A stretch of DNA of 6,883 nt from a virus (taxonomy: Duplodnaviria; Heunggongvirae; Uroviricota; Caudoviricetes): IMG/VR virus record IMGVR_UViG_2690316142_000010; one strand, written 5' to 3'. The translations under genes and the position numbers were made by a program. Under the pieces are notes generated by a model. The model was not told the origin of the DNA. It worked only from the letters and a program-made list of their open reading frames with translations, and did no database searches. Shown here one piece after another: positions 1,482 to 4,235 of this stretch (its first letter is position 1; each line of letters opens with the position of its first letter).

Positions 1482-1595
1482 TGAACCATGGCCTCCGGAA
1501 CAAATAAGGGCAAAAATAACAACCACTATCGAAAGCTCACAAACTAACCGCAGCACGTTCCTGCATACGACGTGTCTGCGGCATAATCCCAATGA

Positions 1596-1866
1596 TTACT
1601 CCCTGACAGGATTTGCAGGCCACTCAATATCAGGTGCAGTTGATGTATCAACACGATTCAACAATACCCGATATTTATTCCATGCCTCCAGCAACGATCT
1701 TTCTTCCTCCGTTGCGATTTCCAGATCTACAGCATCCTGCAGTGGCGCAATATACTCACTAAATTCCTGGATGTAGAACTGTGTGGTGACGGTCTTCCAG
1801 CCATTCGGCTCCTGCTGTATCGAAGCATACTAGGCTATTTCAATATCGCTATGCTGCGGCAGCATT
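1596..1866 (-). pseudogene. Tail fibre assembly protein (Tfa) C-terminal relic, copy A, with in-frame TAG (TGG to TAG relative to copy B)
   Basis: Minus-strand translation ends ...[19 protein letters not shown], homologous to the C-terminus of copy B and of tfa' (6020-6547); premature stop at the codon that is W in copy B (plus-strand CTAGG vs CCAGG). Confidence 0.5.
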
Positions 1867-1921
1867 TAACCCCTTGTAATTCATCGCCATAATTGATTTA
1901 ATTCACAAATAAAACTATAAC

Positions 1922-2373
1922 ATGGTGAAATCAATGAAAACAAACACAGATGATGGGGCTAAAATTTACACACCACTTACCCTAAAGCTTTATGACTGGT
2001 GGGTTTTGGGAGTATCAAATCGGCTTGCATGGGGATGTCCTACAAAGGAACACCTTCTTCCACACTTTCTGGAACATTTAGGTAACAACCATCTGGATAT
2101 TGGTGTTGGAACTGGGTTTTACCTTACTCACGTACCTGAGAGTAGTCTGATATCTTTAATGGATTTGAACGAAGCTAGCCTGAACGCGGCATCTACAAGG
2201 GCTGGGGAATCAAAAATTAAACATAAAATTAGCCATGATGTTTTTGAACCTTATCCCGCGGCGTTACATGGTCAATTTGATTCCATTTCCATGTTTTACC
2301 TTCTTCACTGCCTGCCTGGAAATATATCTACAAAAAGCTGTGTAATACGCAATGCGGCGCAGGCCTTAACTGA
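1922..2373 (+). pseudogene. Class I SAM-dependent methyltransferase, 5' fragment (first ~150 codons), disrupted by the IS110-family segment
   Basis: Protein identical to the copy-B methyltransferase from residue 12 to ...NAAQALT, then the track ORF reads into antisense IS sequence (ESSIVRRCSS...), which is not a real C-terminus. Confidence 0.75.
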
Positions 2374-2964
2374 ATCTTCTATTGTACGACGGTGTTCGTC
2401 AAAAGCTAATTGTCGCCAGGGACTTTCGAATGAGTATTTGCTGAGCCAGCGTCGGTGTGCAGGGCCCCAATCTGCTCGCCCGACATAATGGACCCCATGA
2501 ACCAGAAGAAACGATTTCAGACGTTGCCTTGCATGCCGTAAATCATCGCGGGCAGATGCCCATGCCCGGGCCAAATCCCGGAATGCCTCATCTTCAATGC
2601 CGGGTACGTAGACAGCAGAAAGATCTCCTGCACGCAGTGAACGCACAAGTCTGATGGCATCACGGCGATCGGTTTTAACCCGCTCCCCCGGTTTTTTCGG
2701 GATAAGTGAGGGGGCGCAGACCATGCAGTCAAAACCGGATTTCACCAGCCGACGATAAAGTCCATAACCACAGGGCCCCGCTTCATAAACGATACTGACC
2801 TGCGATGACTTTGACCTGAGACGTTTACAAAGATTCTGAATATCAGTAGGTGATGTGCCAATTTTACCCATCAGTTCAACAGGTTCTGAATTGATAGCAT
2901 AAGCGACAGTAATCGATTCTTTGTGAACATCTAACCCGACGTACAATGTGTTATTGTTGTTCAT
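2305..2964 (-). pseudogene. IS110-family (DEDD) transposase, N-terminal ~196 codons only; C-terminal domain missing, frame runs into antisense methyltransferase sequence before the stop at 2305
   Basis: MNNNNTLYVGLDVHKESITVAYA... is the characteristic IS110-family N-terminus (LYVGLDVHK motif). GGAGG 5 nt upstream of ATG 2962-2964 (minus). Homology to copy B flanks shows IS-derived sequence stops at 2374. Expected full length ~330-400 aa. Confidence 0.8.
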
Positions 2965-3112
2965 GCTGGCCTCCGTGGTGGAAATACCGGGGTGTAGCAA
3001 CAGCTCACCCATGCGGCTCTGACAACGATGTTAACCCGCGTTAAATATCCCACGTTGGCCAGCATCTGTCTCACGGAAAGTCATACTGCCTTACATTGTG
3101 TCTGGTTCTTCC
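2374..3112. mobile_element. Truncated IS110-family insertion sequence (transposase 5' part plus ~148 bp non-coding end at 2965-3112)
   Basis: Boundaries set by where repeat copies A and B stop matching each other (2373/2374 and 3112/3113). ~739 bp is too short for a complete IS110-family element (typically ~1.2-1.5 kb). Exact IS terminus is not verifiable without ISfinder. Confidence 0.6.
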
Positions 3113-3360
3113 GGCCACTCAATATCAGGTGCAGTTGATGTATCAACACGGTTCAGCAACACCCGATACTTCTTCCAGGCTTCCAGCAACGAGTTTTCTT
3201 CCTCCGTTGCGATCTCCAGATCTACAGCATCCTGAAGTGGCGCAATATGCTCACTGAATTCCTGGATGTAGAACTGTGTGGTGACGGTCTTCCAGCCATT
3301 CGGCTCCTGCTGTATCGAAGCATACCAGGCTATTTCAATATCGCTATGCTGCGGCAGCAT
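3091..3360 (-). CDS. Tail fibre assembly protein C-terminal domain fragment, copy B (89-aa ORF, likely relic); its last 7 codons read into IS-derived sequence
   Basis: ORF track 3091-3360(-). ...[33 protein letters not shown] parallels the tfa' C-terminus ...[30 protein letters not shown]; lacks the conserved Tfa N-terminal half (MxHLKNIxAGNPK...). Confidence 0.5.
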
Positions 3361-3387
3361 TTAACCCCTTGTAATTCATCGCCATAA

Positions 3388-3416
3388 TTGATTTAATTCA
3401 CAAATAAAACTATAAT
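3388..3416 (+). promoter_or_regulatory. Candidate promoter for the methyltransferase: -35 TTGATT (3388-3393), 17-bp spacer, -10 TATAAT (3411-3416)
   Basis: Perfect -10 hexamer abuts ATG 3417. If used, transcription would start near 3423 and translation at ATG 3429 (GGTGA SD-like at 3418-3422), giving a near-leaderless mRNA. Alternative CATAAT at 3383-3388. Confidence 0.3.
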
Positions 3417-4085
3417 ATGGTGAAATTAATGAAAAAAAACACAGATGATGGGGCTAAAATTTACACACCACTTACCCTAAAGCTTTATGACTGGTGGGTT
3501 TTGGGAGTATCAAATCGGCTTGCATGGGGATGTCCTACAAAGGAACACCTTCTTCCACACTTTCTGGAACATTTAGGTAACAACCATCTGGATATTGGTG
3601 TTGGAACTGGGTTTTACCTTACTCACGTACCTGAGAGTAGTCTGATATCTTTAATGGATTTGAACGAAGCTAGCCTGAACGCGGCATCTACAAGGGCTGG
3701 GGAATCAAAAATTAAACATAAAATTAGCCATGATGTTTTTGAACCTTATCCCGCGGCGTTACATGGTCAATTTGATTCCATTTCCATGTTTTACCTTCTT
3801 CACTGCCTGCCTGGAAATATATCTACAAAAAGCTGTGTAATACGCAATGCGGCGCAGGCCTTAACTGACGATGGAACTCTATACGGAGCCACAATTCTTG
3901 GCGATGGAGTTGTGCACAATAGCTTCGGTCAAAAACTGATGCGCATTTACAATCAGAAAGGCATCTTTTCAAACACAAAAGATTCCGAAGAAGGCTTAAC
4001 ACATATACTCTCAGAGCATTTCGAGAATGTTAAAACCAAGGTTCAAGGTACTGTAGTAATGTTTTCCGCTTCAGGGAAAAAATAG
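3417..4085 (+). CDS. Class I SAM-dependent methyltransferase (Rossmann fold; small-molecule/protein/RNA type rather than DNA MTase), intact copy; true start may be ATG 3429
   Basis: ORF track 3417-4085 (222 aa). Motif I LDIGVGTG, acidic post-I LMDLNE, motif II FDSISMFYLLHCLP, motif III LTDDGTLYGATIL. No DPPY-type DNA MTase motif seen. Resemblance to the ~221-aa e14 prophage methyltransferase of E. coli K-12 is unverified memory. Confidence 0.85.
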   Translation: MVKLMKKNTDDGAKIYTPLTLKLYDWWVLGVSNRLAWGCPTKEHLLPHFLEHLGNNHLDIGVGTGFYLTHVPESSLISLMDLNEASLNAASTRAGESKIKHKISHDVFEPYPAALHGQFDSISMFYLLHCLPGNISTKSCVIRNAAQALTDDGTLYGATILGDGVVHNSFGQKLMRIYNQKGIFSNTKDSEEGLTHILSEHFENVKTKVQGTVVMFSASGKK

Positions 4086-4089
4086 CATC

Positions 4090-4235
4090 CAACCGCAGCA
4101 CGTTCTTGCTTAAGACGTGCTGCGGCATAATCCCAATGATTACTCCCTGACAGGGTTCGTAGGCCACTCAATATCAGGTGCAGTTGATGTATCAACACGG
4201 TTCAGCAACACCCGATACTTTTTCTAGGCTTCCAC
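4090..4235. repeat. Direct repeat module, copy C (hairpin plus last ~32 codons of the tfa relic), fused at about 4235/4236 to the invertase pseudogene
   Basis: 4090-4235 aligns with 1546-1690 (copy A) and with 3113-3175 (copy B; 2 mismatches vs B in the shared part). Minus-strand frame reads ...[31 protein letters not shown]. Confidence 0.75.
4093..4125. other. GC-rich stem-loop (11-bp perfect stem CCGCAGCACGT/ACGTGCTGCGG, 11-nt loop) at the repeat-unit boundary, between convergent methyltransferase and tfa-relic ends; imperfect counterpart at 1548-1581
   Basis: Read from sequence. Not followed directly by a U-run on either strand, so a classical intrinsic terminator is uncertain; could be an RNA stability or recombination-associated element. 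Confidence 0.4.

Follow-up and report, generated by a model that had tools for sequence, protein, structure and literature searches.

In the Escherichia coli K-12 prophage DLP12, tfaX, ybcY and tfaD (NC_000913) form an end module in which a tail-fibre-assembly (tfa) gene converges on a methyltransferase (MT) gene, with a hairpin between the two and, on the upstream side of MT, a short tfa relic. K-12 has one such unit, in which tfaD is nearly complete in length and the MT gene (ybcY) is a pseudogene. ISSso6 is an RNA-guided DEDD insertion sequence (IS) of the IS110 family found in Shigella and EIEC, and the Rfam family RF02111 ('IS009') is a candidate small RNA from intergenic and phage-derived sequence of E. 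coli. Morons are accessory genes, situated in late operons, that have a promoter and a terminator to themselves (Cumby et al. 2012, PMC3594210). Genome rearrangement and decay driven by IS elements and prophages have been described for Shigella and EIEC (Hawkey et al. 2020, PMC7373316), and the IS elements of Shigella sonnei 53G include ISSso6, IS1 and IS600 (PMC7373316).

Here we analyse a 6,883-nt stretch of viral DNA (Caudoviricetes; IMG/VR record IMGVR_UViG_2690316142_000010), hereafter the window, in which a preliminary description had read positions 1546–4235 as a head-to-tail array of three partial copies of a hairpin, tfa-relic and MT module. The repeat is real, and it is an ordinary prophage-decay scar. 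We consider it probable that the locus derives, through decay, from the tail-fibre end of a lambdoid prophage inserted into ompW, and that its MT module was partly duplicated when the copy from a second prophage recombined in, bringing a broken IS with it.

Results

Self-alignment confirmed three direct copies at the places first proposed (A, 1546–2373; B, 3113–4089; C, 4090–4235) and that they are homologous hairpin, tfa-relic and MT modules. Copies A and B are offset by 1495 bp and, in ungapped comparison, differ at 17 of 328 nt over 1618–1945 (94.8% identity) and at none of the 428 nt of 1946–2373, so that the mosaic identity first noticed is correct, as is the reading that the tfa relics exceed the MT sequence in age and divergence. 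Homology between A and B ends sharply at 1617/1618 and 2373/2374, and 12 of the 17 differences fall within 1656–1761, where the relic shares homology with full-length tfa genes as well. Copy C comprises a further hairpin and tfa 3' end; across 145 nt it is ~88–90% identical to A, with a single indel of 1 nt, located in the hairpin, and it matches B at 71 of 74 positions over 3113–3186. The window thus contains 1.7 MT copies. The coordinates need correction in two respects, although the positions themselves are real: copy B truly starts at 3095 rather than 3113, the final 18 nt of its tfa relic being an allele other than that in A and C, and an ISSso6 fragment at 2375–3094 had been passed over.

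Aligned with K-12 DLP12 tfaX-ybcY-tfaD, window positions 3114–4237 are colinear and 97.3% identical over 1,124 nt, and copy A is 96.3% identical over 755 nt, with the same order and orientation. The unit tfa'-MT-hairpin-tfa is the standard end module of DLP12-type lambdoid prophages. Unlike DLP12, the window has an intact MT gene (MT-B), an extra truncated one (MT-A), the ISSso6 fragment, and a tfa of 31 codons fused to a pin relic (pin').

Loci from other strains likewise carry a single unit. The ST131 locus (L001) is colinear with window positions 138–2373 (99.55% identity) and 3113–5289, and these two alignments overlap on its single unit; the difference is therefore one 1495-bp period. The intact ompW prophage of 14EC017 reads J, lom, stf, a full 194-aa tfa, MT, tfa', DUF4376', Rha and ash. 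Relative to both, the window has one extra 1495-bp insertion inside the MT gene, consisting of 720 nt of ISSso6', 322 nt of tfa'B with its promoter region, and MT nt 1–452. Each of the 90 related loci surveyed has one MT copy, the window being a rearranged member that departs from the pattern of one unit per prophage end. What had been taken for a three-fold array is accordingly one conserved unit, and comparison with related prophages (90 loci, ST131 and 14EC017) returned several units in none; just one extra event needs explanation.

Left of the first hairpin, and part of the resident prophage remnant, lies a 5'-truncated relic of a DUF4376 tail-fibre-chaperone-type gene (1221–1499, minus strand; coordinates mapped from an annotated pseudogene at 5084–5362 of the ST131 locus). 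Its DNA is 74% similar to that of the intact DUF4376 gene in locus L007. The resident-type 3' tfa relic, tfa'A (1596–1865, minus strand), lies within the 99.55% alignment to ST131 and is dead, its translation being broken by an in-frame TAG at 1830–1832. Copy C is the leftover of a functional tfa gene: tfa'C (4140–4235, minus strand) comprises the last 31 codons, with a translation that ends ...DIEWPTNPVRE*, contains an in-frame stop codon, is colinear with K-12 tfaD, and occupies the position of a full 194-aa tfa in 14EC017 and in several loci of the public collection. It is fused to a Pin/Gin-type serine invertase pseudogene (4236–4490, minus strand; 85 codons, two in-frame stops), recognised by a Pfam Resolvase N-terminal domain match, with ST131 annotation and alignment in agreement. 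Since the tfa'C|pin' junction is common to ST131, it is older than the duplication. The window also holds a truncated ompW and a truncated tail-fibre gene; it extends from ~52 nt inside IS1 to 46 nt inside IS600.

The relic in copy B has another source. tfa'B (3095–3360, minus strand) is an intact 89-codon ORF ending ...EWPEEPDTM, with its stop codon supplied by the TTAC at 3091–3094, and matches Pfam Caudo_TAP (E = 2e-26, 3091–3360, minus strand) and phrog_2341 (E = 2e-58). It is 100% identical to the relic of a btsS-adjoining prophage in EIEC strain CFSAN029787, where the module lies between dinI and ipaH (btsS/yehU); identity to that module is 100% over 3095–3440 and 99.7% over 3090–4125. 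Copy B has the donor allele at all 28 type-specific sites (3095–3427), the last A/B difference, at 3436, being private to A, whereas a site-by-site table gives A the resident (ST131) alleles except at four private sites (1761, 1831, 1941 and 2078). A second, independent public contig, IMGVR_UViG_2663762996_000012, reproduces window positions 2625–6883 with a single mismatch, at 3869, and thereby confirms both the linkage IS'-tfa'B-MT-hairpin-tfa'C-pin' and the donor origin of B. At 3869 the sister contig has T, the donor allele, and the window C, so that the right-hand crossover is not uniquely placeable.

In the sense orientation of tfa, tfa'B also matches the full IS009 model at 129.2 bits (gathering score 117), with tfa'A (110.8 bits, 1639–1842, minus strand) and a fragment in tfa'C (46.4 bits) under that threshold. 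Although the match exceeds the gathering score, the sequence concerned is the coding 3' part of a tail-fibre-assembly relic (Caudo_TAP), and any RNA role would be putative.

The intact MT-B (3417–4085, plus strand) encodes a 222-aa class I SAM-dependent methyltransferase of the ybcY family, on the basis of profile matches to Pfam Methyltransf_12/23/25/11 and phrog_2132 ('unknown function'); the family is widespread among E. coli prophages, and the exact protein occurs in 13,959 blocks of the public collection. It is flanked by tail-fibre-assembly sequences on the opposite strand. By the variable-site table its DNA is chimeric, with donor alleles to 3436 and resident-type alleles at 3752 and 3869. 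MT-A (1922–2373, plus strand), delimited from the ORF list and alignment, retains the first 452 nt (150 codons) and is colinear with ST131 up to exactly 2373, where it breaks off, joined to IS sequence in antisense; the ORF extends to 2488. Gene conversion over the MT gene had been proposed to explain the 428 nt without differences. It is unneeded, because MT sequences are at least 99.25% identical across the loci examined, with two common polymorphic sites in this interval. The mosaic identity reflects two tfa' alleles beside a near-invariant MT gene.

The MT gene has 41% GC against 47–50% for the flanking tfa relics, and is preceded by an AT-rich intergenic region (3361–3416, plus strand, 25% GC by composition) that contains the best promoter-like site for the MT gene. 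This candidate, TTGATT-17-TATAAT at 3388–3416, was found by consensus scan and matches 10 of 12 positions, in a scan returning 6 sites where shuffles lead one to expect 6.5; in copy A the second hexamer is TATAAC (difference 1921/3416). The cassette lies at the tail-fibre end, in four classes of downstream and at least four classes of upstream context. The composition and the varied contexts are those of a moron, and MT and hairpin would behave as a moron-like accessory gene, with a candidate promoter before the gene and, in the stable hairpin after it, a candidate terminator; in the window no T-run follows the hairpin.

The window contains two hairpins. Hairpin A (1548–1581; arms CCGCAGCACGT...ACGTGTCTGCGG; –18.8 kcal/mol, z = –4.05) forms the left boundary of the resident module, and its family is found left of the tfa' relic in 31 of the 90 related loci. 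Hairpin C (4093–4125; –23.9 kcal/mol, z = –5.85), the right boundary of the conserved MT cassette, directly follows the MT stop codon, as it does in all 90 loci, and the sequence downstream splits at the 3' arm into four classes. In the ipaH-type and two further contexts the hairpin is followed by a T-run, which is absent in the tfa context of the window; related copies of the hairpin also lie after dinI. A hairpin had been placed at every unit boundary, which holds for these two sites, whereas the A/B boundary is 720 nt of truncated ISSso6. As a short homology patch, a conserved hairpin, putatively a terminator, would account for the mosaic boundaries.

The ISSso6 fragment (2375–3094, minus strand, 720 nt) is 100% identical to annotated ISSso6 copies and retains the left end, the 5' untranslated region and transposase codons 1–196 of 375, including the N-terminal DEDD_Tnp_IS110 domain (PF01548, E = 9e-12). 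Because only half the transposase is present, its score against NCBIfam transpos_IS110 (NF033542) is 112.6 bits, below the cut-off of 140. The full element has ~1528 bp, and the window holds no complete copy with both termini and a full transposase, the right end being missing; the fragment is therefore dead and cannot itself have made the internal junction. Its two ends differ in nature. Comparison of four insertions shows that the IS proper ends at 3094 with the terminus ...CTGCCTTAC, and the uninterrupted donor site reads ...CGCTTACATTGTG..., which together identify 3094|3095 as a normal insertion junction. At the other end, the element breaks internally at 2374/2375 (nt 2374 being ambiguous), and the 2373|2374 junction with MT-A sits inside the transposase gene, with no microhomology at the break.

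The MT-A|ISSso6 junction was absent from 5,426 complete E. coli genomes, GTDB species representatives, JGI metagenomes and IMG/VR, and fusion ORFs across it had no record in protein collections. Neither genome_contigs nor metagenome_contigs contained the ISSso6|tfa'B junction pattern, and no site in any E. coli genome spanned it, the likely source, Shigella, lying outside the E. coli collection; the one other occurrence of this junction is in the sister contig. An intact ISSso6 beside tfa'B, the proposed donor state, was found in no genome. ISSso6 and the B-type allele co-occur in the same EIEC genomes.

Discussion

The window resembles described Shigella and EIEC decay in its ends or fragments of IS1, ISSso6 and IS600, truncated ompW and tail-fibre genes, dead invertase and probable recombination of paralogous prophage segments, and differs in that its junction and partial duplication are absent from every collection searched. 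How the locus is built, which two parental allele types it combines and what kind of junction lies at each end of the IS are observed directly; the route by which the rearrangement arose is what we infer. Copy B is, as part of the same explanation and with equal confidence, probably a chimera from ectopic recombination between paralogous prophage modules. The ancestral order on the late strand (window minus) would have been stf, tfa, hairpin, MT (opposite strand), tfa', hairpin and DUF4376'. In a first event, common to ST131, a deletion would have trimmed tfa to its last 31 codons and fused it to the dead pin invertase. In a second, lineage-specific event, the paralogous module of a second prophage would have recombined into the resident MT gene, the donor being of the ipaH-carrying type beside btsS/yehU in EIEC, with ISSso6 already inserted at the TTAC from which the tfa' stop codon derives. 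The right join would have been homologous, somewhere in the near-identical MT sequence or the hairpin 5' arm, and the left join illegitimate, linking resident MT nt 452 to the interior of the ISSso6 transposase gene, with a truncated MT-A upstream and a rebuilt, intact, chimeric MT-B downstream as the outcome. Either a linear donor fragment with one homologous and one illegitimate join, or Campbell-type integration of the whole donor phage through MT followed by deletion from MT-A to the IS, would fit.

Of the alternatives, an assembly artefact survives best but is unlikely. Here, a single ompW unit and a separate MT(1–452)|ISSso6'-tfa'B-MT locus elsewhere would have been threaded together through the 428-bp identical MT sequence. 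The ~50-nt IS ends (IS1, IS600) that bracket the window are a short-read contig pattern, the window includes an exact repeat of 428 nt as well as 720 nt from a multicopy IS, the linkage of tfa'A to the junction over 428 identical bases rests on the assembler's repeat resolution, and the A|IS junction lacks independent confirmation. However, this junction joins two unrelated sequences uniquely, with no switch within a repeat, and must be in the reads; it requires an MT 5' half upstream, so that the two-locus version needs a third MT 5' copy. Moreover, a second assembly, one SNP apart, independently links tfa'B-MT to hairpin-tfa'C-pin'.

Local tandem duplication, by unequal crossing-over between the hairpin and tfa 3' repeats, with tfa relics that were old beforehand or diverged afterwards, MT gene conversion and later IS insertion, is less probable still, and we think it very doubtful. 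The flanking direct repeats (1546–1690 and 4091–4234, ~90% identical) could support such crossing-over, the first 74 nt of B are nearer to C (96%) than to A (88%), as a hybrid junction would be, and insertion of ISSso6 into a complete second unit with later deletion of the MT-A 3' end, the hairpin and the right part of the IS is conceivable. Against this, 3095–3436 is the allele of another prophage, with the donor state at 28 of 28 type-specific sites in 3095–3427, and an A/C hybrid cannot yield the 18-nt tail (EEPDTM and stop), which is in neither parent. The A|B junction runs from MT nt 452 into the interior of a truncated ISSso6 and separates two population alleles, neither the 90 loci nor the locus as found in ST131 and 14EC017 shows a tandem, and MT identity, at least 99.25% across these loci, requires no conversion. 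The proposal of local duplication followed by gene conversion is thus not sustained.

The conserved hairpin CCGCAGCACG...CGTGCTGCGG might instead serve specifically as a boundary or recombination element by which the MT cassette moves between the tail-fibre ends of different prophages. We regard this as improbable, marginally more so than local duplication; in its favour are the hairpin's presence in 90 of 90 loci, the four unrelated contexts that start exactly at its 3' arm and its extra copies. If true, the partial duplication in the window would be one product of frequent hairpin- or tfa-anchored exchange.

Least credible, and for this array refuted by the junction anatomy, is integron- or shufflon-like site-specific capture, in which the hairpin or tfa 3' end would be the site where a recombinase (pin-type invertase, IS110 recombinase or other) stacks MT cassettes: all 90 loci have the hairpin after the MT stop, with four unrelated contexts diverging exactly at its 3' arm, related hairpins lie left of the tfa' relic and after dinI, and a serine recombinase relic adjoins, but the sole extra junction joins an IS transposase gene to MT coding sequence rather than lying at a hairpin, boundaries do not share one site, no functional cognate recombinase is present (pin is an 85-codon pseudogene with two stops, its junction with tfa'C predating the duplication, and the ISSso6 fragment is without the C-terminal half of its transposase), and none of the 90 loci has more than one cassette. 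Recombination at the tfa 3' end and hairpin did shape the basic module, as the suggestion of cassette capture there implied, but repeated capture is unsupported, and nothing points to a site-specific mechanism.

Returning to recombination with a second prophage, its significance is small outside annotation: the locus is properly annotated as pseudogenes, an IS fragment and one intact MT gene. It also illustrates why repeats of such length in IS-rich genomes require long-read confirmation. The apparent tandem array decomposes into a conserved single module, that of K-12 tfaX-ybcY-tfaD, and a strain-specific recombination with the paralogous module of another prophage, of which the broken IS is the mark. 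The IS'-tfa'B junction could be a lineage marker for Shigella and EIEC typing.

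One module per locus and a single extra period

Self-comparison of the window gives the same figures as the preliminary description, which had reported three head-to-tail copies of a hairpin, tail-fibre-assembly (tfa) relic and methyltransferase (MT, ybcY family) module. Copies A (1546-2373) and B (3113-4089) match in register when shifted by 1495 bp and differ by 17 substitutions in 1618-1945 (94.8% identity) and by none in the 428 nt of 1946-2373; copy C (4090-4235) consists of a hairpin plus the initial ~100 nt of the tfa relic, with ~88-90% identity to A and 96% to B. The hairpins at 1548-1581 (-18.8 kcal/mol) and 4093-4125 (-23.9 kcal/mol) are both far stabler than shuffled sequence. 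The key to the structure lies in the stretch 2374-3112, which the coordinates of that description omitted.

The order tfaD, ybcY (a methyltransferase pseudogene) and tfaX in the K-12 prophage DLP12 is colinear with copies B and C, at 97.3% identity. At the window's own chromosomal site, a truncated ompW adjoining trpA-yciEFG, 14EC017 carries an apparently intact lambdoid prophage with the order J, lom, stf, full-length tfa (194 aa), MT, tfa' relic, DUF4376' relic, Rha and ash. In ST131 genomes this prophage is decayed and, just as in the window, only the last codons of tfa remain, joined to a dead pin invertase and an invertible stf/tfa segment. Copy C is the stump of a functional tfa gene; the module has long had a tfa 3' end on either side of MT. 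The ST131 locus L001 aligns with 138-2373 (99.55% identity) and with 3113-5289, both alignments falling on one single unit, so that the window exceeds that unit by exactly one period of 1495 bp. Among the 90 loci fetched from NCBI assemblies and IMG/VR prophage contigs, all encoding the protein of the MT in copy B or a near-identical one, MT is present once in every case; the tandem frequency rests on these loci, since a synthetic tandem query also counts a lone unit, matched in two parts, as one 'place'. The comparison with related prophages, proposed earlier to see whether they have one unit or several, thus returned one, and in place of an array built by repeated cassette capture there is one conserved single-copy unit with one extra period, leaving a single event to explain.

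The left part of copy B matches a different prophage

The stretch 3095-3440 is 100% identical to the module of a different, ipaH-carrying prophage in the enteroinvasive E. coli (EIEC) strain CFSAN029787 and its relatives (the donor type), where the module is flanked by a dinI-like gene on one side and an ipaH effector gene on the other, adjoining btsS/yehU; over 3090-4125 the identity to this module is 99.7%. In a site-by-site table, copy A has the alleles of the resident, ompW-integrated prophage (ST131) save at four private sites, whereas copy B has the donor allele at 28 of 28 type-specific sites in 3095-3427, among them those in an 18-nt tail encoding ...EEPDTM* that is absent from A and C. 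Resident-type alleles return in copy B at 3752, at 3869 and from the 3' arm of the hairpin onward.

As population alleles of the module, the upstream types of A and of B are both common. Of their 17 differences, 12 fall in 1656-1761, the part of the relic that is still homologous to full-length tfa genes (tfaD), and in translation the tfa differences are mostly synonymous, a pattern that fits two distinct tfa alleles and not degeneration on the spot. No locus examined falls below 99.25% MT identity, and the stretch that A and B have in common contains just two sites of common polymorphism, so that 0 differences in 428 nt are unremarkable. Gene conversion over MT, previously invoked for this identity, is superfluous, since population alleles suffice.

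The ISSso6 fragment and its two borders

The stretch 2375-3094 is a 720-nt remnant of ISSso6 (IS110 family) and agrees with annotated copies at 100% identity. An undamaged element measures about 1528 bp and encodes a transposase of 375 aa; here the transposase gene is cut at codon 196. Four independent insertions set the true IS terminus (...CTGCCTTAC) at 3094, and the uninterrupted donor reads hairpin-TTTTTCTTTTTCGC-TTAC-ATTGTGTCTGG; the border with the tfa relic of copy B (3094|3095) is therefore a standard IS insertion border, at the TTAC that gives the relic its stop codon. ISSso6 is present in the same EIEC genomes as the B-type allele. The donor state, ISSso6 next to this relic, is absent from the genome_contigs and metagenome_contigs collections, and the join was found elsewhere only in an IMG/VR contig that reproduces the window's own locus. 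No obvious target consensus appeared in four left-end flanks of ISSso6 and the right-end flanks of three of those copies, and the remnant gave no Rfam match to a bridge-RNA family.

The other border, 2373|2374, joins the MT of copy A (1922-2373) to the IS interior without microhomology (GCAGGCCTTAACTGAATCTTCTATTGTACGACGGTG). An exact-pattern search of genome_contigs, metagenome_contigs and viral_contigs gave no match to this junction, and it was likewise absent from E. coli complete genomes, GTDB representatives, JGI metagenomes, IMG/VR and protein collections. Megablast of 2250-3250 found no place spanning it among 5,426 E. coli genomes, a collection that excludes Shigella/EIEC genomes of the source type. 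Exact protein look-up of the fusion ORFs 1922-2488, 1934-2488 and 2305-2964 (minus strand) found none on record, and a 68-aa junction peptide reached at best 51% coverage in the protein database, which thus holds no such fusion protein; a match to this peptide on a 6933-nt Logan contig proved to be the unrelated DLP12/ompT locus. Separately, in one ST131 genome (NZ_CP103710.1; 4785-7993 of its locus L002) the MT gene is split by ISEc23 (IS66 family), another independent IS hit on the module.

Independent linkage and the possibility of misassembly

A second record, IMGVR_UViG_2663762996_000012 (4272 nt), matches window 2625-6883 with one mismatch, the donor allele T at 3869, and extends 13 nt deeper into IS600. 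It confirms both the linkage of the ISSso6 remnant, the tfa relic and MT of copy B, the hairpin, the copy C relic and the pin relic, and the donor origin of B; in its lineage, the right-hand crossover is between 3870 and 4121. This contig stops short of the junction between MT and the IS interior.

The window opens with an IS1 end (1-~52), followed by a 3' fragment of ompW (~52-137), the integration site of the resident prophage, which ST131 and 14EC017 keep without IS1. It closes with the 46-nt left end of IS600 (TGAGGTAGCCTGAGTTTAACGG..., 6838-6883), which cuts a tail-fibre gene on the minus strand (C-terminal part, 6549-6863). Such bracketing by IS ends of ~50 nt is the signature of a short-read contig and, together with a junction found nowhere else in the collections searched, raises the question of an assembly error across the 428-nt identical stretch. 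We consider this improbable: the join, being unique, has to be present in the reads, and upstream it requires a 5' half of MT. The co-occurrence of ISSso6, IS1 and IS600 fits a Shigella or EIEC source; all three are in the IS list of Shigella sonnei 53G (PMC7373316).

Possible routes to the extra period

The rearrangement is described most simply as a 1495-bp insertion at MT nt 452/453, consisting of the ISSso6 remnant (720 nt), the donor-type tfa relic with its putative promoter region (322 nt) and MT nt 1-452. Its right side would be a homologous crossover in the near-identical MT or in the 5' arm of the hairpin, and its left side an illegitimate join into the IS interior. A linear donor fragment may have been integrated by one homologous and one illegitimate join; alternatively, a whole donor phage may have entered Campbell-style through MT, with a later deletion from the MT of copy A into the IS. 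Both routes fit the data, neither being preferred. The IS110 recombinase was ruled out as the maker of the internal junction. The junction between pin and the copy C relic is common to ST131 and is thus older than the duplication.

The hairpin as a module boundary

A hairpin lies directly 3' of the MT stop codon in 90 of 90 loci, and beyond it the sequences split at its 3' arm into four classes: a tfa 3' end (66 loci), the ipaH type with a T-run (12) and two others (9 and 3). In 31 loci a related hairpin lies to the left of the tfa' relic, and the donor has one after dinI. The earlier proposal of a hairpin at each unit boundary thus receives partial support, but the hairpin does not account for the extra copy, whose novel junction lies elsewhere. 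If the hairpin acts as a terminator, the arrangement is the one predicted by the moron concept for accessory genes that bring their own (PMC3594210). Terminators that are short and conserved can also serve as a homology patch for phage-phage exchange; a dedicated hairpin-directed recombination system is improbable in general, and nothing in the window requires it.

Coding content of the module and flanking features

MT of copy B (3417-4085, plus strand) encodes a 222-aa class I SAM-dependent enzyme (Pfam Methyltransf_12/23/25/11) that falls in phrog_2132, labelled 'unknown function'; solved structures match it only weakly and are small-molecule O-methyltransferases such as UbiG and juvenile-hormone acid methyltransferase. 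A literature search on ybcY/tfaX found nothing functional. The second hexamer of the best promoter-like site upstream is TATAAT in B (3411-3416) and TATAAC in A (1916-1921) and ST131; judged from these hexamers, recombination would have replaced the resident MT 5' region with a version nearer the promoter consensus.

The tfa relic of copy B (3091-3360, minus strand) is an intact 89-codon ORF for the C-terminal part of the assembly protein (Caudo_TAP, E = 2e-26), matched end to end by phrog_2341 (88 positions, E = 2e-58). On translation, that of copy A has a TAG at codon 13 and that of copy C retains only its last 31 codons. With an intact ORF, its own PHROG and mostly synonymous A/B differences, the short ORF may be maintained rather than pure debris. 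The candidate sRNA family IS009 (Rfam RF02111) matches all three relics on the minus strand, the tfa sense strand (3134-3337, 1639-1842 and 4183-4262), and only copy B scores above the gathering cut-off. What the family models seems to be the conserved coding 3' portion of tail-fibre-assembly genes. A weak partial match to CssrB, a chromosome-encoded Shigella sRNA (4094-4156, minus strand; E = 8.5e-4; 32.6 bits, the gathering score being 76), spans hairpin C and the stop region of the copy C relic.

Elsewhere, directly upstream of the ash-family and Rha genes, plus-strand Rfam matches to c4-a1b1 (378-430, 43.8 bits, just under the gathering score), isrK (391-465, 72.2 bits) and C4 antisense RNA (489-576, 75.9 bits) make 378-576 look like a surviving P1/P7-type, antisense-RNA-controlled antirepressor (immI-like) region in a prophage remnant. 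The stretch 4236-6863 is a frozen invertible tail-fibre segment with two inverted pairs of stf C-terminus and tfa genes (4694-5305 and 5458-5991, plus strand; 6020-6583 and 6549-6863, minus strand), adjoined by the relic of a pin-type invertase, an 85-codon pseudogene with two stops. Its arms at 5458-5616 and 6389-6547 are 71% complementary, and the half at 5290-6883 shares only ~74% identity with the ST131 allele; its best match in E. coli genomes reaches no more than ~93%.

The repeat is confirmed, and its earlier interpretation holds in part. What the window shows is a known prophage-end module in a strain-specific rearrangement, within a decaying prophage rich in IS elements. Its general significance is low.
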